Source: a virus
Taxonomy: Duplodnaviria > Heunggongvirae > Uroviricota > Caudoviricetes
IMG/VR virus record: IMGVR_UViG_2558309052_000002
Length of the DNA stretch: 40,896 nucleotides
Strand: one strand, 5' to 3'
Positions 2,113 through 30,773 of this stretch are shown here, piece by piece; the first letter of the stretch is position 1, and each line of letters starts with the position of its first letter. The notes beneath the pieces are model-generated. The model made no database searches. It was not told where the DNA came from and was given only the letters and a program-made list of their open reading frames with translations. The translations under genes were made by a program, and so were the position numbers.

Positions 2113-2180
2113 TAAAAATACTCCCTTTTGAGTGGTTAAAGTACTGAGATAATGTGGGGAGGATTTGAGAGATAAACGTT

Positions 2181-2696
2181 GGTTTAGGAGAAGGCTCGGC
2201 GCTACCCGTTGGTGTGCCTGTTCCGTGGCCCACCGCCACACCGCCAGCAGGCTGGTTAAAGTGCGACGGGCGCGCCTTTACAAAAGAACAATATCCTGTT
2301 CTGGCCAGAGTCTACCCGACCCTCCGTCTTCCCGATTTACGCGGTGAGTTTATCCGTGGATGGGACGACGGGCGCAAAGTTGATACAGGACGTAAGTTGC
2401 TGTCCGCACAAGGGGCAACGCTGTTAAGAACAGCAATGCTGGATTATTATAACCAGGACACTACGGGAACCTCGGGGATAGTCGGCATGGGATTCAACAA
2501 TGAAGATTCCATTACAGACCTTCGTGAGGGCAGCTTTAAAATGCCGGACGGGACAACATTCAGCGATCCTGTCGTGGCAATGTCAGACAATGGTATGCAG
2601 GCTACTATTCTGACCTCTATCAGAAGCGGGTATGCGAAGGGTATCACTGTCAGACCCCGTAGCATTGCACTTAATTACATTGTGAGGGCAGTTTAA
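2181..2696 (+). CDS. alternative tail-fibre C-terminal variable cassette (A), currently silent
   Basis: Frame open from 2169 with no credible own start. Begins with the shared LGEGSALPVGVPVPWPTATPPAGWLKCDGRAFTKEQ block, then a unique region, ending ...RPRSIALNYIVRAV. Confidence 0.7.
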   Translation, partial: GLGEGSALPVGVPVPWPTATPPAGWLKCDGRAFTKEQYPVLARVYPTLRLPDLRGEFIRGWDDGRKVDTGRKLLSAQGATLLRTAMLDYYNQDTTGTSGIVGMGFNNEDSITDLREGSFKMPDGTTFSDPVVAMSDNGMQATILTSIRSGYAKGITVRPRSIALNYIVRAV

Positions 2697-3310
2697 TGAG
2701 TAACACTGCAGTTCTGGATGAAAACGGTATCGCCACTGTAGCGGGCGATATCACTGTATATCACTATGACGAGGAAACCCGGGAATACACCTCATCCTCT
2801 GTGGAGTATCTCGCCCTTGGGGTGGGTACTCCGGCACATTCGTGCGCCGATGCACCGCCGGAAGCAATTTCGGGTTACGTGGTTTGCCGGACTGCCACGC
2901 TGAACGGGTGGGAGCATGTGCCTGATCACCGCGGCGAGACGGTATACAGCACGGAGAACGGTAACCCCGTTCTGATTACCCAACCGGGTGATTACCCGGC
3001 GGACACCACCACAAAACAGCCAGCCACGCCATGGGATACCTGGAACGGTGAGGCGTGGGTAACCGATACTGAACGGCAGCGAGCCGCAGAACTGGAGGTT
3101 GCCAGACAGCAACGCCAGCAACGGGTGAAACAGGCGATGGCGTCCGTCGATCTTATCAACCTCAAACTGCGTGCTGGTCGCAGTCTGAAACCAGAAGAAA
3201 CGGCAAAACTGAACGCCGTGCTGGATTATATCGACGAGCTGAACGCACTGGATATCAGCAAGGCACCTGAAATCAGCTGGCCGGAAGCGCCACTGGCGCT
3301 TGCCGGCTGA
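2696..3310 (+). CDS. tail fibre assembly protein (chaperone) paired with cassette A
   Basis: 204 aa. ATG overlaps the cassette A stop (TAATG). Resembles phage tail-fibre assembly proteins (Mu U / P2 G type). Confidence 0.75.
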   Translation: MSNTAVLDENGIATVAGDITVYHYDEETREYTSSSVEYLALGVGTPAHSCADAPPEAISGYVVCRTATLNGWEHVPDHRGETVYSTENGNPVLITQPGDYPADTTTKQPATPWDTWNGEAWVTDTERQRAAELEVARQQRQQRVKQAMASVDLINLKLRAGRSLKPEETAKLNAVLDYIDELNALDISKAPEISWPEAPLALAG

Positions 3311-3316
3311 ACGGTA

Positions 3317-3778
3317 TCACGCCGCCCTCACGATATAGTTAAATGCGATATTGCGGGGGCGAGCTGATACATAAGCCCACCAGTCATATCTTTGTGCACC
3401 TTTAGAGGATGCATCAAATATCCACTTTTTGCCATTTAAGACCCCCAGTTGATTAGAGGTTAAAGCGTCACCAAATCCGTATTGTGTAGAGCCGAGCGAA
3501 CTGATATCTCCGGTATCATTATCATCAAAACCGGATACGATAGTCCCTTCCTGAAATGAAAGTAGCGCACGCCCGGTATCAACCTTGCGACCACCGTCCC
3601 ATCCACGGATAAACTCACCGCGCAAATCGGGAAGACGGAGGGTCGGGTAGACTCTGACCAGAACAGGATATTGTTCTTTGGTGAACGTAGCTCCGTTGCA
3701 CTGTAACCAGCCTGCTGGCGGTGTGGCGGTGGGCCATGGAACCGGTACACCAACAGGCAATGCAGAGCCTTCCCCCAA
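3317..3778 (-). CDS. alternative tail-fibre C-terminal variable cassette (B), silent, no ATG
   Basis: 153-codon frame beginning TTG-GGG-GAA (LGEGSALPVG...) 10 nt after the expressed fibre stop; ends ...RPRNIAFNYIVRAA. Diverged homology block (about 85% to A/C). No downstream assembly gene. Confidence 0.6.
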   Translation of the reverse strand: MGEGSALPVGVPVPWPTATPPAGWLQCNGATFTKEQYPVLVRVYPTLRLPDLRGEFIRGWDGGRKVDTGRALLSFQEGTIVSGFDDNDTGDISSLGSTQYGFGDALTSNQLGVLNGKKWIFDASSKGAQRYDWWAYVSARPRNIAFNYIVRAA

Positions 3779-3788
3779 ACCAACGTTT

Positions 3789-5042
3789 CTATGCCGCCCT
3801 TACGATGTAATTAAACGCAATGTTACGGGGACGAATGGTCACATAATTAACCCCATCGCCTCGCGAAGGACCTGCAAATGAAAAACGGGAGAATCCAGGT
3901 TGGTTGTCAACGATTTGGTCATAGTTATTGATTGAATGACCAGACCCAATGTCAAAATTACCTGCGTAATGAGAAAAACTTGTACCATCCTGCCGTGAAA
4001 GCAGATCGCGCCCTGTATCCACTTTTCGCCCGTCGTCCCATCCACGGATAAACTCACCGCGTAAATCGGGAAGACGGAGGGTCGGGTAGACTCTGGCCAG
4101 AACAGGATATTGTTCTTTTGTAAAGGCGCGCCCGTCGCACTTTAACCAGCCTGCTGGCGGTGTGGCAGTGGGCCACGGAACAGGTACACCAACGGGCAGC
4201 GCCGAGCCTTCCCCCAAACCAAGGTAATTGAGGACATCTTTTATACTGCCCTTAGCGATAATAGCGCGACCAATAGCTGTAAGGGTTGCCAGCTCTGCGC
4301 GGTCTGCTCCGGTAAAATAAGGCAACCGATCTGCTGCAGTGGCAAGTCCTGCCAGAGCAGTGAGCGTGGCATCTGCCGGTTGTTTTCCGTTTGCCAGATC
4401 GTATGCAGCCTTGACCGCTTTCGGTGTGGCGGCCAGTATTTCAGACGTGCTGTTGATGGCACTGCTCAATTGTACGGTGCCTTTTGCCGTCAGCGAGGCA
4501 GCAGGCACTCCCGTTATCTGACTCCACGGGTGAGTGTGGCTGACGGGCGCCTTGCCGGCTGCAAGGTCGTATGCAGCCTTGACCGCCTTCGGCGTGGCAG
4601 CCTCAGTTTCTGATTGACTGTCCGTGGCGCTGCTCAGTTGTACGGTGCCTTTTGCCGTCAGTGAAGCCGCAGGCACTCCCGTTATCTGACTCCACGGGTG
4701 AGTGTGGCTGGCAGGCGCCTTGCCGGCTGCCAGGTCGTATGCAGCCTTGACCGCTTTTGGTGTGGCGGCCAGCGTTTCAGAGGTGCTGTTGGTGGCACTG
4801 CTCAGTTGGGTGAACCCCTTAGCTGTCAGTGTCGCGTCCGGGTGGTTACGGGAACGTACGTGTTCAGCCAGTGACTGTGCGGCTTCCTCCGTTTTCTTCT
4901 TCAGCCATTTCGTCCTGTTTGCCAGTTGCCGGGGGGCTCGATTTGATATCCCGTCTGCACCACCCAGAACCGGATCTGATGTCTCCAGTTGATAGATATT
5001 TTCTTCCCACTTTTCTGTTTCATTCAGGTTTCCCATAATCAA
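3789..5042 (-). CDS. tail fibre protein (constant N-terminal part fused to variable cassette C)
   Basis: 417 aa. ATGA overlap with the upstream gpI-like gene; internal 56-aa tail-fibre repeats; C-terminal 140 aa is homology block C plus a unique tip ending ...NIAFNYIVRAA. Confidence 0.9.
   Translation of the reverse strand: MIMGNLNETEKWEENIYQLETSDPVLGGADGISNRAPRQLANRTKWLKKKTEEAAQSLAEHVRSRNHPDATLTAKGFTQLSSATNSTSETLAATPKAVKAAYDLAAGKAPASHTHPWSQITGVPAASLTAKGTVQLSSATDSQSETEAATPKAVKAAYDLAAGKAPVSHTHPWSQITGVPAASLTAKGTVQLSSAINSTSEILAATPKAVKAAYDLANGKQPADATLTALAGLATAADRLPYFTGADRAELATLTAIGRAIIAKGSIKDVLNYLGLGEGSALPVGVPVPWPTATPPAGWLKCDGRAFTKEQYPVLARVYPTLRLPDLRGEFIRGWDDGRKVDTGRDLLSRQDGTSFSHYAGNFDIGSGHSINNYDQIVDNQPGFSRFSFAGPSRGDGVNYVTIRPRNIAFNYIVRAA
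4388..4829 (-). repeat. in-frame tandem repeats (168 bp, about 2.6 copies) inside the tail fibre gene
   Basis: Protein repeat LTAKG(F/T)(T/V)QLSSA.(N/D)S.SE..AATPKAVKAAYDLA.GKAP.SHTHPWSQITGVPAAS occurs twice in full and once in part. Shadow ORFs on + at 4393 and 4729 (336 nt apart) share ARSYAALTAFGVAAS. Confidence 0.85.
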
Positions 5043-9937: not shown

Positions 9938-12888
9938 CAGCGGTACTCCTTACGTTGTTTCTGAGCCAGCAGACGCTCCAGCATTTTTTCCAGCTCATGC
10001 AGACTCATATTCAGGGCACCAGTCAGTCCTGCAGGCGCTGTGGTTTCCCTGCCATTGAGGAAAAACTGAGGATTAAAGCTGACCTGGATACCACCAGACG
10101 TTCCACCGCCGGTTGCAGCTGCACCACGGCCTGAATATCCGGCAGCCAGGATTTCAGGCGAGGGGATACGGGGAACATCCGGTGTCATCTCATTTGCCAG
10201 ACGTTGCCCTGGTAAAATCGATGCCCGGGTGGAGAGCGGAATAGCGGGCATGGAAGACAAACTATTGATTACGGCTCCGATCGCATTTTTAGCAGACGAC
10301 ATAAACCCATTGATATCGGGCAACGGCATACTGAAGCGAACACCTGAAGTGTTATCCCGTATTTCTGGCCCCTGAATGCTCACGGGCATTCTGGGGAGCA
10401 GTTCACTGGCCATTCGCTGCCCGGCCAGAGCTGCAAGCGGAGTGGTCCGCTGCAGGCCAATGGCGGCCCCCTGCGCGATATTGTCACCAAAGCCCATAAA
10501 CACGCGGCTCGGCGAATGAATGCCCAGCTTTTCGCTGAACCAGCCACTGATGCTGTCGCCCATTCCGGTTACACTGGATTTGAGCGACTCCCATTTGTTT
10601 TTGATACCGTTAATCAGACCATCGACAAGATGGCCACCGAAGTCGGTAAACTTTGCCGGCAGATCAACACCAAGATATTTCAGCGCAGCTGCAAAGGCTT
10701 TATAGAGCAGACCTGCCGGCGACCAGTTAATCAGCAGCTTACCAGTTCCCGCGATACCGCCGTTAAAGGCTTCCTGAATGTCAGCCCAGCATTGTTTAAA
10801 CCAGCTACTGATGCTGTCACCCATTCCGGTTACACTGGATTTGAGCGACCCCCATTTGTTTTTGATACCGTTAATCAAACCGTCGATAAGATGGCCACCG
10901 AAGTCGGTGAACTTTGCCGGCAGAGTAACGCCGAAATATTTCAGCGCAGCCGCAAAGGCTTTATAGAGCAGGCCTGCCGGCGACCAGTTAATCAGCAGCT
11001 TACCAGTTCCCGCGATACCGCCGTTAAAGGCTTCCTGAATGTCAGCCCAGCGCTGTTTAAACCAGCCACTGACTGCCCCCCAGTTGCGGTAGATAAGGTA
11101 AGCTGCTGCCGCGACAGCGGTGATAACGAGACCGATGGGATTCATCATCAGCGCTCGCCCAATCCAGAGAACGGCACGTGCAGCGCTCATAAAACCGCGA
11201 ACGAGGCTGCCCGCCAGAACTTTGCTGAGTTTCAGTCCTCCGCTGGTCAGTCGGCTGAATCCAGTGACAAGCCAGCGTAATTTGCCACCTTCTCCGAGTG
11301 CGGTAGTCAGTCGATGCCAGTTGGTCCGGAGTAAAACAGCAGTTTTCCAGACGTTCACAAAGGGGGAAATAAGGAGATTCAGCCCCAGTTTGAGACCAAC
11401 AGTCGCTATCTTAATCGCAAGGAGCGCACTGATGAGCTTAAAAGCCCCACTGACAAATTGCGGGTGAGTCGCCACCCAGTGTTTTGTCCCCTGAATGAGT
11501 GGGAGCAAGTCCTGAGTCAGAGAAATAAAAGATGGAGCTAATTGATCGCCCAGCGTAATTGCCAGATCGCGACTGCTGACCATAAGTGTTTTAGTGGCTT
11601 CAAGGGGAGATTTCAGCCGCTGATCATAAGCACTGGCAAGCAAATCGTTATCCGCAGCCCTGAGAGCACCGGCACGGATCTCTCGATATCTGTCCATGTT
11701 GGCCAGCATCGGGCGGATAAATGCCATGACCTGCATATCCGCGAACATATCGCCCAGACCAAAGTTTTTCGCCAGAGCCTGAAGTGCCTCATCTCTTGCC
11801 GTATCATTCTTTATTTTCATGGCTGATTTGAAGCCGGCCAGCGCTTCGGGGCTTTTGGCATTGAGGTAACGTTCTATAACACTCAACATCCCTTCAATCG
11901 GAGAGATCCCCGCAGCTTTATAACTCGCAATAGATCCCTGCAAATCAATACCCAGATCAGCAAACTGTTTCTGAGTATCGCGGGCAAAAATTTTGGTAAG
12001 AAAGTTTTTAAAATTATTGGCTGCTTCGTCGGTGGAACCTGCACCGATTTTTGCTATCTGGAGACTGGCCCCGATTTCAGCAACAGCCTCTTTTCCACTG
12101 GCAATACCCGCCATCATTGGGGCCAGGGACTGCATCCACTTGACCTGATCCGGGATTTCAAATGACCCCTGGTCACCGGCATAAGCCATAATATTCTGAA
12201 CGGCACCAAAATCTCTGGCCGCGCCTTTCAGGGAGTTTTGCCAGACTGCGGCCACTTTTGCCCAGTCCTGAGCAGACGTGCGTGTTGCCGTTGCCGCGCG
12301 GGCAATATCCGGCATCAGAAAACCGATATCTGACACATTATCAATATTGTCGCTGATGAGTGAACCCATCGCCTCCTGCAGCTCATCCTGATACTGATTG
12401 TATTTAAGCGCCCAGCCTTTTATCTGTCCGGCAAGTGCATCCCGCGTTTTATTGTCATATTTTGCGGTGATCGACATATCAATCATTTTGTCCTGAAAAG
12501 ACATGGACTGCTGAACGGCAGGGGAAACCGTATGATAAACAGTCTGTGCCATGCCATACGCTTCAATCCCCTGACCATACAGCGCCATGCGGTTAGCTTT
12601 CAGCGCATCACTGGTAGCGGATGCCGCTGACAGACGGCGCTGCTGGCGCTCAATTTGCTCCATGGTGCGGCTTACCCGCAGCAGCTCGCTGTTGAGATGC
12701 TGCATCCGGGAAGAACCCAGTTGACCATAACGTTCTGTTGCACGGGTTAAAGCGTTCTGACGTTCCTGCAGGCGGCGTGAGGTATCGCTCAGGGAATCAA
12801 GCGCACGGCGGGTACCGCTCATTGCAGAACGGAATGTGCTGCCAATCATCCCGCCGATAACAACGCCGACTGAAAACTGTCCCGACAT
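9937..12888 (-). CDS. tail tape measure protein
   Basis: 983 aa, alpha-helical and Gly/Ala-rich, downstream of the frameshifted tail chaperone; RBS GGAGG before the ATG at 12888; contains an internal 86-aa tandem duplication. Confidence 0.9.
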   Translation of the reverse strand: MSGQFSVGVVIGGMIGSTFRSAMSGTRRALDSLSDTSRRLQERQNALTRATERYGQLGSSRMQHLNSELLRVSRTMEQIERQQRRLSAASATSDALKANRMALYGQGIEAYGMAQTVYHTVSPAVQQSMSFQDKMIDMSITAKYDNKTRDALAGQIKGWALKYNQYQDELQEAMGSLISDNIDNVSDIGFLMPDIARAATATRTSAQDWAKVAAVWQNSLKGAARDFGAVQNIMAYAGDQGSFEIPDQVKWMQSLAPMMAGIASGKEAVAEIGASLQIAKIGAGSTDEAANNFKNFLTKIFARDTQKQFADLGIDLQGSIASYKAAGISPIEGMLSVIERYLNAKSPEALAGFKSAMKIKNDTARDEALQALAKNFGLGDMFADMQVMAFIRPMLANMDRYREIRAGALRAADNDLLASAYDQRLKSPLEATKTLMVSSRDLAITLGDQLAPSFISLTQDLLPLIQGTKHWVATHPQFVSGAFKLISALLAIKIATVGLKLGLNLLISPFVNVWKTAVLLRTNWHRLTTALGEGGKLRWLVTGFSRLTSGGLKLSKVLAGSLVRGFMSAARAVLWIGRALMMNPIGLVITAVAAAAYLIYRNWGAVSGWFKQRWADIQEAFNGGIAGTGKLLINWSPAGLLYKAFAAALKYFGVTLPAKFTDFGGHLIDGLINGIKNKWGSLKSSVTGMGDSISSWFKQCWADIQEAFNGGIAGTGKLLINWSPAGLLYKAFAAALKYLGVDLPAKFTDFGGHLVDGLINGIKNKWESLKSSVTGMGDSISGWFSEKLGIHSPSRVFMGFGDNIAQGAAIGLQRTTPLAALAGQRMASELLPRMPVSIQGPEIRDNTSGVRFSMPLPDINGFMSSAKNAIGAVINSLSSMPAIPLSTRASILPGQRLANEMTPDVPRIPSPEILAAGYSGRGAAATGGGTSGGIQVSFNPQFFLNGRETTAPAGLTGALNMSLHELEKMLERLLAQKQRKEYR
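10538..11053 (-). repeat. 258-bp perfect-frame tandem duplication inside the tape measure gene
   Basis: Two consecutive near-identical 258-bp units (10538-10795, 10796-11053) plus the start of a third. Protein shows WADIQEAFNGGIAGTGKLLINWSPAGLLYKAFAAALKY...GIKNKW.SLKSSVTGMGDSIS twice; near-identical shadow ORFs on + at 10520 and 10778. Confidence 0.9.
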
Positions 12889-26825: not shown

Positions 26826-26962
26826 AGCGCGTTAAGAGAGCCGGGGATACGGGATGTGCAGGATAAACGATGAATTATTCACAGAGGAGAATACGATATG
26901 ACGCAGACACTGAATCCGGTCATCACTGTCACCGTGTCCGGTCCTGTGGGCAGCGGTAAAAG

Positions 26963-26990
26963 TTACCGTACTGGCGCGAATAGAGGTAAG
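26963..26990. repeat. 28-bp direct repeat, left copy, flanking the IS66-family element
   Basis: TTACCGTACTGGCGCGAATAGAGGTAAG, identical to 29514-29541. The last 5 nt overlap the IS terminus GTAAG. Confidence 0.9.
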
Positions 26991-27015
26991 CGTCAACGGA
27001 GCACCGTATTGACGC

Positions 27016-28629
27016 TTATTTATTGGTGAGTACTACGTTCCATGGCAGGAGTTCGTCAACTCGGTTGGAAGGCCATTCCGGCAGTACGCTCAGGATATGG
27101 CGCAGATACGCTTCCGGATCGATACCGTTCAGACGGCAGGTGCCGATCAGCCCGTACAACAGTGCTCCACGCTCGCCGCCGTGATCGCTGCCAAAGAACA
27201 TAAAGTTTTTCTTTCCGAGACAGACTGCACGAAGCGCTCTTTCCGCAGCATTATTATCCGCCTCCGCCAGACCGTCATCACTGTAATAACAGAGGGCATC
27301 CCACTGATTCAGTACATAGCTGAACGCTTCGCCCAGTCTGGATTTTTTCGACAGCGTACCATTCTTCTCCACCATCCATTCATGCAGCGACGTCAGTAAC
27401 ACTTTGCTTCGCTGCTGCCTGACGGCAAGACGCTCTGACTCCGGTAATCCCCGTATTTCATCCTCGATGGCGTACAGTTCACTGATTCGCTTCAGGGCTT
27501 CTTCTGCCGTCGCACTTTTGCTGCTGATGTATACATCGTGGATTTTTCGCCGGGCATGGGCCCAGCACGCAACTTCTGTCAGTGCACCACCTTCACGTTC
27601 TGCACTGAACAACCTGTCGTAACCTGTGAACGCATCCGCCTGCAGGATACCCCGGAAGGGGCGGAGGTGTTGCTCCGGGTGTTTCCCCTGCCGGTTCGGC
27701 GAGTACGCGAACCAGACCGCTGGAGGAGATGACGAACCCACATTGCGATCATCCCGGACATACGTCCAGATACGCCCTGTTTTCGCCTTTTTCTGACCCG
27801 GTGCCAGTACCTTTACCGGTGTGTCATCAGTGTGAACCTTGCGGGTGTTCATTACATAACGGTACAGGGCATCATTCACCGGTGTCATTAACTGGCAGCA
27901 CGCGTCAACCCAGTTGGAGAGTAAGGCCCGGCTCAGTTCGACACCCTGGCGGGCAAAGATTTCACTCTGACGATACAGTGGCAGATGTTCGCAGTATTTT
28001 CCCGTTAACACGCGGGCAAGTAATCCGGGGCCCGCGATACCACGCTCTATCGGGCGGGACGGCGCCGGTGCTTCAACAATACAGTCACATTTTGTACAGG
28101 CTTTTTTTACCCGTTCTGTGCGGATCACTTTCAGGGCACTGCTCACCAGTTCCAGCTGTTCAGCGCTGACTTCCCCCAGATAATCCAGCTCACCGCCACA
28201 CTCCGGGCAACAGCTTTCTTCTGGCTCCAGGCGGTGTATTTCACGGGGAAGGTGTGCCGGTAACGGACGACGATGGCGCGACTGTCGCAACTGGCGGGGA
28301 ACCTGAGGATCGTCTTCCCGCCCACTGTAACGATCGCTGTCCTGTTCACGTTGTTTCAGCAGAGCCTCAGCCAGTTCAACTTCACGACGCAGTTTTTCAG
28401 AACGGGTACCGAACAGCATCCGGCGCAGTTTTTCTATCTGAGCCCGCAGATGTTCTATTTCCCGTTCATCTTCTTCGATCTTTTCTTCGGCACGTGTCAG
28501 TGCAGAGCGCAGGAAGGCTTCCGTCTCTTCAACCAGACTCAGTTGCTGGTCTTTCTGACGGAGGGCTTCAGCCTGCTCAGAGAGCAACCTTTCCAGCTCT
28601 GCGATGCGAATGAGGTATTTCTGACTCAT
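27016..28629 (-). CDS. IS66-family transposase (TnpC / orf3)
   Basis: 537 aa, N-terminal coiled coil, CxxC...CxxC zinc-ribbon region and DDE-type core; typical IS66 transposase architecture. Confidence 0.9.
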   Translation of the reverse strand: MSQKYLIRIAELERLLSEQAEALRQKDQQLSLVEETEAFLRSALTRAEEKIEEDEREIEHLRAQIEKLRRMLFGTRSEKLRREVELAEALLKQREQDSDRYSGREDDPQVPRQLRQSRHRRPLPAHLPREIHRLEPEESCCPECGGELDYLGEVSAEQLELVSSALKVIRTERVKKACTKCDCIVEAPAPSRPIERGIAGPGLLARVLTGKYCEHLPLYRQSEIFARQGVELSRALLSNWVDACCQLMTPVNDALYRYVMNTRKVHTDDTPVKVLAPGQKKAKTGRIWTYVRDDRNVGSSSPPAVWFAYSPNRQGKHPEQHLRPFRGILQADAFTGYDRLFSAEREGGALTEVACWAHARRKIHDVYISSKSATAEEALKRISELYAIEDEIRGLPESERLAVRQQRSKVLLTSLHEWMVEKNGTLSKKSRLGEAFSYVLNQWDALCYYSDDGLAEADNNAAERALRAVCLGKKNFMFFGSDHGGERGALLYGLIGTCRLNGIDPEAYLRHILSVLPEWPSNRVDELLPWNVVLTNK

Positions 28630-28659
28630 GACCGTTTTTATAATGCGGTCAGGAGTTTT

Positions 28660-29010
28660 TTACAACATTGTCAGTGAGTTACGGCTGGATGTTTTTGGCT
28701 GACGCCAGTCCAGCTTATCGAGGAGCATTGCCAGTTGCGAGCGGGTAATGGATACCTTGCCGTCACGTACCGCAGGCCAGATAAACTGGCCTTCCTCCAG
28801 GCGTTTGGTGAACAGGCACAGACCATCAGCATCAGCCCAAAGAATTTTGACGGTGTCACCCCGTCGGCCACGGAAGATAAACAGGTGACCGGAGAAGGGA
28901 TTATCATTCAGCACATGTTGTACCTGTTCTCCCAGTCCGTTGAAGGATTTACGCATATCGGTAACGCCGGCAACGAGCCAGATACGGGTACCTGATGGGA
29001 GTGAGATCAT
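28660..29010 (-). CDS. IS66-family accessory protein TnpB (orf2)
   Basis: 116 aa, MISLPSGTRIWLVAGVTDMRKSFNGLGEQV...; recognisable IS66 Orf2 family. Confidence 0.9.
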   Translation of the reverse strand: MISLPSGTRIWLVAGVTDMRKSFNGLGEQVQHVLNDNPFSGHLFIFRGRRGDTVKILWADADGLCLFTKRLEEGQFIWPAVRDGKVSITRSQLAMLLDKLDWRQPKTSSRNSLTML

Positions 29011-29432
29011 CTTCCCCTCCCGGTCAGTTCACGGATCAACACTGTGAGCAGCTCTGGCGATGGATTTTCCAGCGTCATGTTACCGTGACGGAATTCCACC
29101 TTGCAGGAACTGGCACTGACTCTGGTCTGAGTGGAAGTGGATAAAGACGGCGCAATGGCCGCCACAGGTTCTTTCTGCTCATCCGGCGTTATTTCTACAG
29201 GTAATAATTCAACGCCAGTGTCAGAAGAGGTCGTTACCGGAAGACGCCGCGAAACACGCCCTTCGTTCTGCCAGAGCCTGAGCCATTTGAAAATAACATT
29301 ATCATTGACGCCATTTTCACGTGCAATCTGTGCAACACAAGCTCCAGGTTGTGATGCCAGTTCCACCATACGAAGTTTGAATTCATTCGAATAGTTTTTA
29401 CGAGGTTCTTTTCGCCAGTCCTGTAATTCCAT
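29007..29432 (-). CDS. IS66-family accessory protein TnpA (orf1)
   Basis: 141 aa, helix-turn-helix-like N-terminus (MVELASQPGACVAQIARENGVNDNVIFKWLR); overlaps orf2 by 4 nt. Confidence 0.85.
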   Translation of the reverse strand: MELQDWRKEPRKNYSNEFKLRMVELASQPGACVAQIARENGVNDNVIFKWLRLWQNEGRVSRRLPVTTSSDTGVELLPVEITPDEQKEPVAAIAPSLSTSTQTRVSASSCKVEFRHGNMTLENPSPELLTVLIRELTGRGR

Positions 29433-29513
29433 ACTTAGATGTCCGTCTATATCAGATGGGCGTCTAAGTTACCAATTCTCGTCTGATGGCTACATACGGC
29501 GGTCAGTTTACGC

Positions 29514-29541
29514 TTACCGTACTGGCGCGAATAGAGGTAAG
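29514..29541. repeat. 28-bp direct repeat, right copy, flanking the IS66-family element
   Basis: TTACCGTACTGGCGCGAATAGAGGTAAG, identical to 26963-26990. The first 4 nt overlap the IS terminus ...CTTAC. Confidence 0.9.
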
Positions 29542-30179
29542 TGGTGAAACAGGAATTCGGAAACAGCGTCATTGTCGACGCCGCAGACGTGGACGGTGAG
29601 CGCCGTATGAGTGGGGATGATCTGAGCACATGGCAGAAACCACGGGCTGGCACAGTGATCAGGCTGGAGGAATACACGGGACAGGGCCTGTTGTCATACG
29701 GCGAGGAGCGTATCTGTCGGACGAATGAGCTGCTGGATGTTATATGCCCCACGGGCCGGCAACCCTGGATACTGCCCGATGCACTGCATGCCACCATTGC
29801 GGCACTGATGACAGTTTACGATCAGGAGCTGCTCATGAAGGAGTTACGTAAACTCACTGGTCAGTCAACAGAATGTTGTTCGTCCCCGAAGTACGGCAAA
29901 CAGGAACACATCCCGATTAACCAGCCTCCCCGGTTCTTCGACGAATACCTTCTGACACCGGAAAATAAAGCTGAGCATGAAGAGATCAAAGCGGCGTTGT
30001 TCCGGGAAATCAGGAAGATTGCTGAAATGCAACTGGAGGGCGGGCTGGACAGAGTGATGGCGAGAGGAGAATGGGCATCGCTGTTTGAAAGAGTTTCCCC
30101 GGAATTACTTCCCCTCGCACTGGCTATCGGGATTATGCAGACAGCGGATAAACCTCACTTACGTTCATTAAACACGTAA
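29541..30179 (+). CDS. hypothetical protein
   Basis: 212-codon ORF from GTG at 29541 (alternative ATG at 29607); no family I recognise. Start lies inside the right flanking repeat of the IS, so its native 5' context is disrupted. Confidence 0.45.
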   Translation: MVKQEFGNSVIVDAADVDGERRMSGDDLSTWQKPRAGTVIRLEEYTGQGLLSYGEERICRTNELLDVICPTGRQPWILPDALHATIAALMTVYDQELLMKELRKLTGQSTECCSSPKYGKQEHIPINQPPRFFDEYLLTPENKAEHEEIKAALFREIRKIAEMQLEGGLDRVMARGEWASLFERVSPELLPLALAIGIMQTADKPHLRSLNT

Positions 30180-30559
30180 CGCATAATCCGGGATACGCAT
30201 TCAGCGATGACTGCATTTTCACCGGTTTTTACTGCATCCAGAAGTGACTCTTTAAATGGTACGGGCCGGGGCTGCAGAAAGGTCGGCATGGCATTGAGCA
30301 GACAGAGCGTTTTTTCCGTGAGGACGACATCAGCCGCTCCCACAGCCAGCAACTGAGAGTAACGAATATAGCTGTTATCCCGAAGCCATATCAGCGTATC
30401 AATAAAACACCGGCACTTTTTCTGGTCGTGATCAACCTGGTCCGGGATATCGAAAAAACCAGAATAAATCAAAACCTGAGGTGCCGGATGCGTGTTCAGT
30501 AATCGGCAGAATATTTTGCCGGTGAGTACATAAAAATCATCATTTAAGGAGTGCATCAT
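30155..30559 (-). CDS. hypothetical protein
   Basis: 134-aa ORF convergent with the previous ORF (25-nt overlap); weak GGGGA RBS; no recognisable motif. Confidence 0.35.
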   Translation of the reverse strand: MMHSLNDDFYVLTGKIFCRLLNTHPAPQVLIYSGFFDIPDQVDHDQKKCRCFIDTLIWLRDNSYIRYSQLLAVGAADVVLTEKTLCLLNAMPTFLQPRPVPFKESLLDAVKTGENAVIAECVSRIMRYVFNERK

Positions 30560-30773
30560 GAATCCCCGATTAACGTTAACAGAACATCAGCGCCGTGCTG
30601 AAGCAGTGAACAATGTTCTGGAAGATATTATCCGGTTATACCGCGGAGAACTGAGTGTCTGTCGTGCCGCTTTTCATTTTCAGGGAATACAAAAGCAGTT
30701 TGATACTTCTGTTTTTGCAGAAGGTATTACTTATGCCCTGGACCGGATAAGGTCAGAAAATCGCCCCGGATAA
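30558..30773 (+). CDS. hypothetical small protein
   Basis: 71-aa ORF with a strong RBS (AAGGAG, 6 nt spacing); predicted helical; no recognisable family. Confidence 0.45.
   Translation: MNPRLTLTEHQRRAEAVNNVLEDIIRLYRGELSVCRAAFHFQGIQKQFDTSVFAEGITYALDRIRSENRPG

Follow-up and report, generated by a model that had tools for sequence, protein, structure and literature searches.

The 28-bp perfect direct repeat that flanks an ISEc23 element in a Mu-like prophage of E. coli JJ1886 is not the product of one transposition, and it is most likely a by-product of the assembly of the JJ1886 genome rather than a new transposition type. The element itself is an ordinary, already known insertion sequence, and its insertion has split a conserved 242-aa prophage gene with a Walker-A motif at a target, GAATAGAG, that is repeatedly used by ISEc23 in other strains with a normal 8-bp duplication. 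The window, by which we mean the whole stretch of 40,896 nucleotides that was analysed, comes from GenBank CP006784 (E. coli JJ1886). The Mu-like character of the host element is seen in a Mu-type portal, gp27, Mor, Gam, a DDE transposase with an AAA+ partner and an invertible tail-fibre segment; these genes were taken from the annotation of the collinear region of isolate JJ1887, between the host genes aroA and ycaL, and are backed by the Pfam matches Portal_Mu, Phage_Mu_Gp27 and rve. JJ1887 is a near-clonal sister isolate of JJ1886 and carries no insertion sequence (IS) at the corresponding locus. Outside the IS locus and the invertible segment, the window and JJ1887 can be aligned over about 36 kb with no SNPs and no indels.

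The complete ISEc23 element (2,532 bp) occupies positions 26986–29517 on the minus strand and shows 0 differences (100% identity) from the copies in L087, L002, L003 and L034; its transposase is labelled by PGAP as 'IS66-like element ISEc23 family'. All three ORFs of an IS66 element are present with Pfam scores far above the cutoffs, and all lie on the minus strand: tnpC at 27016–28629, encoding a DDE transposase of 537 aa (PF03050, E=9e-98) that also contains zf-IS66, LZ_Tnp_IS66 and IS66_C domains above cutoff (PF13005, PF13007 and PF13817); tnpB at 28660–29010, encoding the Orf2-like IS66 accessory protein of 116 aa (PF05717, E=1e-36); and tnpA at 29007–29432, encoding an HTH accessory protein of 141 aa (PF01527, E=5e-12). 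The termini read GTAAGCG...CGCTTAC and form the imperfect inverted repeat, starting 5'-GTAAGCG, of the IS66 family, with the tnpC-proximal end at 26986–27010 (GTAAGCGTCAACGG...) pairing with the tnpA-proximal end at 29493–29517 (...CAGTTTACGCTTAC), so that 20 of the 25 terminal bases are inverted-repeated (GTAAGCGTCAACGG... against GTAAGCGTAAACTG...). The domains, the termini and the identity to other copies all confirm the IS66-family assignment that had been made in the sequence-only reading.

The duplications made by ISEc23 are exactly 8 bp long at all 13 distinct insertion sites that show one (two alleles at the present insertion point plus 11 other sites), and none is longer. These sites share only an AT-rich centre, and for this reason a general taste of ISEc23 for targets that mimic its own ends was rejected. 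A search for related loci in the genome contigs yielded few usable ISEc23 copies. Nineteen other full copies end in GTAAGCG/CGCTTAC and have unrelated flanks, so the 28 bp are not part of the IS. The first 70 bp at the 5' end of the interrupted gene, which belongs to the phrog_3787 family, form a regional ISEc23 hot spot that has been hit at three or more positions, so that a further copy close by is plausible. Because this gene end is a recurrent target of ISEc23, whether the IS is found there is a homoplasic character and an unreliable lineage marker.

The uninterrupted site is found in about 580 E. coli genomes, including JJ1887, as a single copy of the 26-bp sequence TTACGTACTGGCGCGAATAGAGGAAG within an intact 242-aa ORF. 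In L087 (GCA_016389245.2) and L090 (LVRW01000125), ISEc23 shares both the exact insertion nucleotide and the orientation of the window copy, with GAATAGAG as its target site duplication (TSD) and otherwise identical flanks; the canonical junction strings are AAAAGTTACGTACTGGCGCGAATAGAGGTAAGCG and ACGCTTACGAATAGAGGAAGTGG. This canonical allele is also carried by the genome that encodes SYN47535.1. The same 8 bp are duplicated in L002, L091 and L095, where the element is inverted at the same point. The window shares with the canonical allele of L087 and L090 the insertion point, the orientation, the gene, all 2,532 bp of the IS and a left junction in which GAATAGAG is joined to GTAAGCG, whereas it differs from that allele by an extra C in the left flank, 11 extra nt on the right and an extra T, and its repeat measures 28 instead of 8 bp. 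A 28-bp target duplication by ISEc23, which the sequence-only reading had implied, is contradicted by the 26-bp empty site and by the same IS occurring elsewhere at this very nucleotide with an ordinary 8-bp GAATAGAG duplication.

The repeat unit, TTACCGTACTGGCGCGAATAGAGGTAAG, occurs exactly twice in the window, at 26963–26990 and 29514–29541, and cannot be extended on either side; it is the only perfect long direct repeat of the window, with about 1e-8 such pairs expected by chance. It consists of TTAC, 19 bp of left flank and GTAAG, so that only 4–5 nt at each outer edge coincide with an IS terminus: the last 5 nt of copy 1 are the terminal GTAAG and the first 4 nt of copy 2 are the terminal TTAC. 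The perfect repeat and its 19 bp per copy outside the IS were thus described correctly at the outset, and the element and the repeat do lie within the span 26898–29607 proposed for them, although copy 2 begins at 29514 and the end of that span at 29607 belongs to the downstream flank. As deposited, the window copy does not have a plain 8-bp TSD; the canonical GAATAGAG is nested inside the repeat on both sides (26978–26985 on the left, 29529–29536 on the right), and this departure concerns the flanks in the CP006784 record and not the ISEc23 element. Between the IS end and the right copy of GAATAGAG lie the 11 nt CGTACTGGCGC (29518–29528), a second copy of left-flank sequence that is missing from the canonical allele of L087 and L090. 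Two further single bases have no counterpart in the empty site or in any other insertion allele. The extra C at 26967 (one of the CC at 26966–26967) converts GTTAC|G to TTACC, matching the right junction of the IS, and the extra T at 29538 converts GAGGAAG to GAGGTAAG, matching the left junction. The 28 bp are therefore made up of the 8-bp canonical duplication, 11 bases copied a second time from the flank, two unique single bases and IS-terminal bases, and relative to the empty site the window duplicates only 19–20 bp of target. The outer junctions as deposited in CP006784 read AAAAGTTACCGTACTGG and GAATAGAGGTAAGTGGTG.

Several simple origins of these bases were considered and rejected. A random sequencing error was rejected in view of the agreement with JJ1887 over about 36 kb, which makes the anomalies junction-specific, and of the fact that both extra bases lengthen the repeat. 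Neither the extra C nor the extra T occurs a second time in 5,426 E. coli genomes, IMG/VR or the JGI metagenomes, and no pre-existing allele with either base was found in these collections. If the canonical allele underwent one double template switch, the repeat would be 27 bp long and lack the C, an incomplete match, while an IS circle (19-bp spacer) that integrated by a Campbell-type crossover cannot put both extra bases into both copies. With fill-in errors at an insertion staggered by 19 nt, the extra bases would lie on opposite strands and segregate into different daughter cells, and a mixed culture of two single-IS alleles would produce a 19-bp repeat without the extra bases.

We consider the chances about even that an ordinary hot-spot insertion, possibly a tandem pair of ISEc23 elements, was mis-finished in the 2013 assembly. 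The strain would then carry two ISEc23 copies 19 bp apart, or else abundant circle or dimer junction molecules, with a head-to-tail junction in which the right end of one IS is followed by CGTACTGGCGCGAATAGAG and then by the left end of the next (junction string ACGCTTACCGTACTGGCGCGAATAGAGGTAAGCG). Reads from this junction may have been merged onto the two true outer junctions under a consensus in which a base beats a gap, and such merging would yield exactly the three differences from the canonical allele that are seen, namely the C, the 11 nt and the T. Alignment of the head-to-tail junction with either true outer junction opens an 11-nt gap at 29518–29528, besides gaps of one base exactly at 26967 and 29538. 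Closure in silico together with hand curation would finally have reduced the pair to a single IS with a copy of the junction on each side; at a minimum, the two unique bases would be finishing artefacts and not biology if a tandem pair was collapsed. According to the JJ1886 genome paper, the inputs were HiSeq, 454 and short PacBio RS reads, several assemblers and PBJelly/PAGIT were used, and in the 2013 assembly, with its IS-sized gaps, "gaps were closed in silico ... with manual curation". The genome whose mis-assembly is described in the EC958 paper is NA114, not JJ1886.

Set beside the gap-closure and collapsed-repeat artefacts of early hybrid 'finished' genomes, the anomaly coincides exactly with the edges of a 2.5-kb repeat present in several copies, and the odd bases are unique to CP006784 and make the two sides artificially identical, while elsewhere the window agrees with JJ1887 base for base. 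This last point shows that the assembly was generally accurate and counts against an artefact. A simulated consensus from naive global alignment reproduced the junction-proximal sequence together with spurious gaps further out, and as such shows plausibility only. Since read mappers with standard gap penalties would soft-clip the 11-nt insertion, the explanation also needs an overlap or consensus step with lenient settings, or else an edit by hand. Since JJ1887 has no IS at the locus, a tandem pair in JJ1886 could only be of very recent origin. Head-to-tail pairs of IS66-family elements do exist, and the pair in L096 is bounded by a single 8-bp TSD; a head-to-tail ISEc23 junction with a 19-bp spacer was found in no other assembly searched, nor in any read or contig. 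The partial junction ORFs predicted for the alternative structures were also missing from the protein collection, where their absence is uninformative. As a practical consequence, the reference genome CP006784, on which many ST131 studies draw, probably has an IS junction that was wrongly finished, giving rise to two spurious ORFs (43 and 211 aa) and perhaps concealing a second copy of ISEc23.

Head-to-tail (IS)2 dimers and IS-circle junctions are formed by the copy-out-paste-in elements IS30, IS21, IS911/IS3 and IS256, with spacers of about 2–10 bp. The 28-bp unit resembles these junctions in its composition, with 4–5 nt of a right and of a left IS terminus around a short spacer derived from sequence that flanks the other end. 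It differs from them in the length of the spacer (19 bp) and in its position at the outer flanks rather than between two IS copies. Literature searches found nothing on the transposition mechanism of the IS66 family or on the accessions JAEJUC and LVRW.

It is also conceivable, if somewhat unlikely, that the deposited sequence is correct and records an aberrant or multi-step ISEc23 event with a real 19–20-bp duplication and two single-base additions. By one route, the usual spacing of the two strand transfers would have been widened by about one helical turn (8+11 bp); by another, two nearby insertions, each with an 8-bp TSD (CGTACTGG and GAATAGAG), would have been followed by unequal exchange, in which case the left-junction string of the second insertion would be GTTACGTACTGGGTAAGCG. 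Either route requires later gene conversion or template switching that homogenised the copies with the adjacent IS ends. A correct deposit agrees with the canonical left junction, with an 11-nt excess close to one helical turn, with the multi-site hot spot and with the otherwise perfect match of the assembly to JJ1887, and reads of a plain canonical allele could not have given rise to a join between the IS right end and CGTACTGG. Against this, the 13 other measured ISEc23 sites all have 8 bp, no single known step gives both extra bases, and neither base recurs in any other data set searched. We regard as unlikely the specific proposal that an IS66-family transposase made its strand transfers about one helical turn further apart (19–20 instead of 8 bp), with IS-terminal bases copied into the edges of the duplication; if true, it points to a replicative template-switching step or to a head-to-tail intermediate that carries flanking sequence. 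Were the junction real, its sequence would give a rare indication of the way in which IS66-family elements transpose, resting on one record.

An improbable third account is that JJ1886 has the same plain canonical allele as L087, one IS between two 8-bp copies of GAATAGAG, and that the 13 extra bases arose by hand editing or gap filling without any head-to-tail junction, for example when an apparent deletion, anchored on the TTAC common to both, was filled in from a reference. The canonical allele does occur with identical IS and flanks in several other assemblies, and if an alignment of IS end and flank were filled from a reference with the empty site, GTACTGGCGC would be inserted behind TTAC. 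This route yields 10 nt without the extra C, however, and leaves unexplained both the T and the C, the latter 2.5 kb away in the left flank. Moreover, no read from the canonical allele contains TTACCGTACTGG.

The interrupted gene is represented by two fragments on the plus strand. The 5' fragment (26898–26985) is identical, apart from the one extra C, to the start of WP_000194951.1, the 242-aa protein encoded at empty sites, and the 3' part (29541–30179), a GTG-started ORF of 212 aa (211 aa in GenBank), is identical to residues 31–242 of the intact protein. Together the fragments make up WP_000194951.1 except for the frameshift due to the two extra bases. In the window, the ATG at 26898 opens a frame reading MTQTLNPVITVTVSGPVGSGKS... 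that runs into the IS as a 43-aa ORF (26898–27029). This ATG frame had been recognised previously, as had the 32-codon ORF ending in GTGGTGA that is obtained when the IS and one repeat copy are removed. A short leader ORF, one of the two origins then offered, did not hold, since a single 242-aa ORF spans both parts at empty sites, whereas the other, destruction of a longer gene with a P-loop motif, agrees with the intact ORF in hundreds of genomes and the frameshifted site in the window. It is exceedingly improbable that a genuine 32-codon leader upstream of a separate 212-aa gene was hit, or that the 28 bp belong to the IS: the former has only the appearance of the reconstructed ORF with its overlapping GTGGTGA in its favour, against a protein that matches phrog_3787 end to end, and the latter is opposed by the GTAAGCG/CGCTTAC ends and unrelated flanks of the other copies.

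No Pfam family matches the intact protein at cutoff (the best, AAA_30, scores 16.5 bits where the cutoff is 27), and PADLOC gave only E ~3e-3. The AF2 model places a strand at residues 8–14, a loop, a helix at 21–36 and a strand at 41–46 with a mean pLDDT of 49.9, a confidence too low for a fold search from the model. The protein therefore has neither a significant match to a P-loop family profile nor a confident P-loop fold, but a Walker-A motif of the form GxxxxGK[ST] follows a beta-strand as GPVGSGKS at residues 15–22 (codons 15–22 of the 5' fragment) and is invariant in 11 homologues. The gene order around the locus (lysis cassette, phrog_3787 gene, phrog_2266, phrog_4490, Dam methylase, repressor) is like that of WP_000194951.1/phrog_3787, a hypothetical protein with a P-loop motif from Mu-like prophages of Enterobacteriaceae, whereas the gene in the window is split and frameshifted. 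The frameshifted 43-aa product forms a singleton cluster that comes from the JJ1886 GenBank record only, and the junction ORF without the extra C (P0002) is found in 6 contigs, some of them from Logan read assemblies.

The insertion sequence occupies positions 26986–29517 of the window (2,532 bp, with ends GTAAGCG...CGCTTAC that are inverted repeats at 20 of the 25 terminal bases) and carries its three open reading frames on the minus strand. These encode a 141-residue HTH protein, a 116-residue TnpB_IS66 protein and a 537-residue DDE_Tnp_IS66 transposase that also has zinc-finger, leucine-zipper and C-terminal domains. In PGAP annotation the identical transposase is called "IS66-like element ISEc23 family", and none of the 2,532 positions differs from copies at four unrelated loci. 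From this identity, the name and the set of ORFs it follows that the element is a complete, ordinary ISEc23. The perfect 28-bp direct repeat reported around it in the sequence-only reading was confirmed: the 28-mer TTACCGTACTGGCGCGAATAGAGGTAAG occurs exactly twice in the window, at 26963–26990 and 29514–29541, with the complete ISEc23 between the copies. The match cannot be extended on either side and has a chance expectation of about 1e-8. No other long direct repeat in the 40.9 kb is perfect.

Each flank of the insertion was matched in about 580–630 complete E. coli genomes, and in nearly all of these the flanks share a 26-bp overlap that marks the empty site. In strain 4/1-1 this site reads ...AAAAGTTACGTACTGGCGCGAATAGAGGAAGTGGTG... 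and lies inside a single 242-residue ORF, WP_000194951.1 (MTQTLNPVITVTVSGPVGSGKSYVLARIEEVVKQEFG...), so that of the two possibilities raised from the sequence, a short leader ORF hit by the element or a longer P-loop-motif gene destroyed by it, the former was wrong and the latter right. The 32-codon ORF obtained on reconstruction results from the +2 frameshift introduced by an extra C and an extra T in the flanks. The gene belongs to a Mu-like prophage that occupies a site between aroA and ycaL, with the lysis cassette to one side of it and the Dam methylase/repressor region to the other. Its product matches phrog_3787, a family of unknown function, from end to end, and its relatives are all close ones, from E. 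coli, Salmonella and Enterobacter. No Pfam cutoff was reached (the top match, AAA_30, scored 16.5 bits against a cutoff of 27), and PADLOC gave no convincing match. The AlphaFold model is poor (pLDDT 49.9), its recognisable part being only an N-terminal strand, P-loop, helix, strand unit. In CP183699.1 (L088/L094), AATCC[C]GGTCATC, roughly 60 bp upstream of where the element inserts, has an extra C that frameshifts this gene, and a gene with the same 211-residue product, matched at product level, was called on 15–16 further contigs grouped with that record. Two small genes of phage families of unknown function lie downstream, at 30155–30559 on the minus strand (phrog_2266, antisense to, and overlapping, the 3' end of the interrupted gene) and at 30558–30773 on the plus strand (phrog_4490).

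A conserved prophage gene is thus split by an ordinary ISEc23, and the target is a recurrent one. Strain MB1341 (L002) carries ISEc23 in this gene in the opposite orientation with the target duplication GAATAGAG, an arrangement shared by L091, L095 and L089. In GCA_016389245.2 (L087) and LVRW01000125 (L090) the element has the orientation and exact nucleotide position seen in the window, again with GAATAGAG, and IS and flanks are identical. Further insertions are seen in L098, about 20 bp upstream and following AAAAGT, and in L099/L100 and P0004, about 30 bp downstream and following CATTGTC, where both orientations occur. With insertions upstream of, at and downstream of GAATAGAG, the first ~70 bp of the gene constitute a regional ISEc23 hot spot, within which the element keeps its 8-bp rule (window 26898–27000 and 29529–29600; L098, L099, L100, L002 and L087). 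Other truncated products, for example P0048 and P0055, suggest further elements. At the right junction of L089 (Logan ERR4781808), AAATAGAG adjoins the IS end instead of GAATAGAG, reflecting a mutated copy of the duplication or an independent event in a prophage variant. Among 19 full ISEc23 copies taken from IMG/VR and other loci, the duplication was exactly 8 bp at 12 distinct sites, absent in six copies and never longer than 8 bp; across the 13 sites obtained by including L087, an AT-rich centre is the only visible target preference. The empty-site comparison proposed in the sequence-only reading yielded a single 26-bp version, and the ISEc23 copies from IMG/VR and other loci offered no parallel for an over-long duplication, all being 8 bp where present.

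Compared with the empty site, the window duplicates just CGTACTGGCGCGAATAGAG(G), 19–20 bp, and contains two additional bases, one per flank: C at 26966/26967 on the left (GTTAC[C]GTACTGG) and T at 29538 on the right (GAGG[T]AAGTGG). Through each extra base, the outer edge of one repeat copy reproduces the IS terminus adjoining the other copy (TTAC/C and G/GTAAG). Relative to the canonical same-orientation allele there are exactly three differences: the C (26967), the 11 nt CGTACTGGCGC that follow the IS right end (29518–29528), and the T (29538). The 28-bp repeat does not belong to the IS and is not a normal target duplication. The 43-residue ORF spanning the left junction was seen in CP006784.1 (E. 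coli JJ1886) alone, which identifies the window as this record. Both extra bases are unique to it: searches of 5,426 complete E. coli genomes, of IMG/VR and of JGI metagenome contigs yielded neither. The frameshifted product is a singleton in a collection of 15 billion proteins, in which six contigs, some of them derived from Logan assemblies of reads, carry the junction ORF lacking the extra C (P0002). Leaving aside the IS locus and a flipped invertible tail-fibre segment, the near-clonal sister isolate JJ1887 shows no SNPs and no indels over ~36 kb, which ties the three differences to the IS junctions and rules out random base-calling errors as their source.

We consider it an even chance that the 28-bp repeat is a finishing artefact in which a head-to-tail IS junction was folded onto both flanks. 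The starting molecule would read IS right end, CGTACTGGCGCGAATAGAG, IS left end, and merging it with the true left and right outer junctions, bases beating gaps, would produce all three differences in one operation. Pairwise alignment of head-to-tail and outer junctions places gaps exactly at 26967, 29518–29528 and 29538; since a naive global consensus also gives spurious gaps further out, this merging argument is one of plausibility only. The junction could come from two tandem ISEc23 copies 19 bp apart in JJ1886, formed when the hot spot was struck a second time or when a circle that had taken up 19 nt of left flank re-integrated, with ~1.6-kb reads unable to resolve the 2.5-kb tandem repeat and collapsing it; or it could come from abundant junction molecules in the DNA preparation. 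Head-to-tail IS66-family pairs do occur, as in strain 2015C-3905 (NZ_CP027371.1; L096 776–5807, 5,032 bp), where a related IS without its last 5 nt (CTTAC) directly abuts ISEc23 (...GTTTACG/GTAAGCG...). A single 8-bp duplication, TAATGAAG, bounds this pair, whose flanks look as if it had moved as a unit. The same junction is also found on plasmid NZ_CP027372.1 of that strain.

It seems rather improbable that the record is accurate and the sequence arose in a rare event, either aberrant or in several steps. None of the known processes tried, starting from the empty site or from the canonical allele, could account for both extra bases of the window. A staggered insertion of 19 nt (8 + 11, roughly an additional helical turn) explains the duplication only; fill-in errors, being on opposite strands, would be parted when the DNA was next replicated. 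If two insertions with 8-bp duplications (CGTACTGG and GAATAGAG, 3 bp apart) underwent unequal exchange, the repeat would be 19 bp long and lack the extra bases. A double template switch that began with the canonical allele and used TTAC and AAG microhomologies would yield a 27-bp repeat without the C, and Campbell-type integration of a circle is unable to put both extra bases in both copies. Less probable still is that the strain has the plain canonical allele seen in L087 and L090, in which case the 13 extra bases would all stem from faulty editing. On present evidence, both the element and the genome are known and the junction is doubtful; researchers studying the IS66 family may wish to note the hot spot and the possible head-to-tail junction.

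Elsewhere in the window, the Mu G-segment-like invertible tail-fibre region (2174–4225, with a recombinase gene at ~1540–2112) is flipped relative to JJ1887, and all 15 apparent SNPs between the two fall within its ~220-bp inverted boundary repeats. In-frame tandem repeats are found in the tail-fibre region (4384–4887, three units of 168 nt) and in the tape-measure gene (10538–11059, two units of 261 nt, 94% identical).
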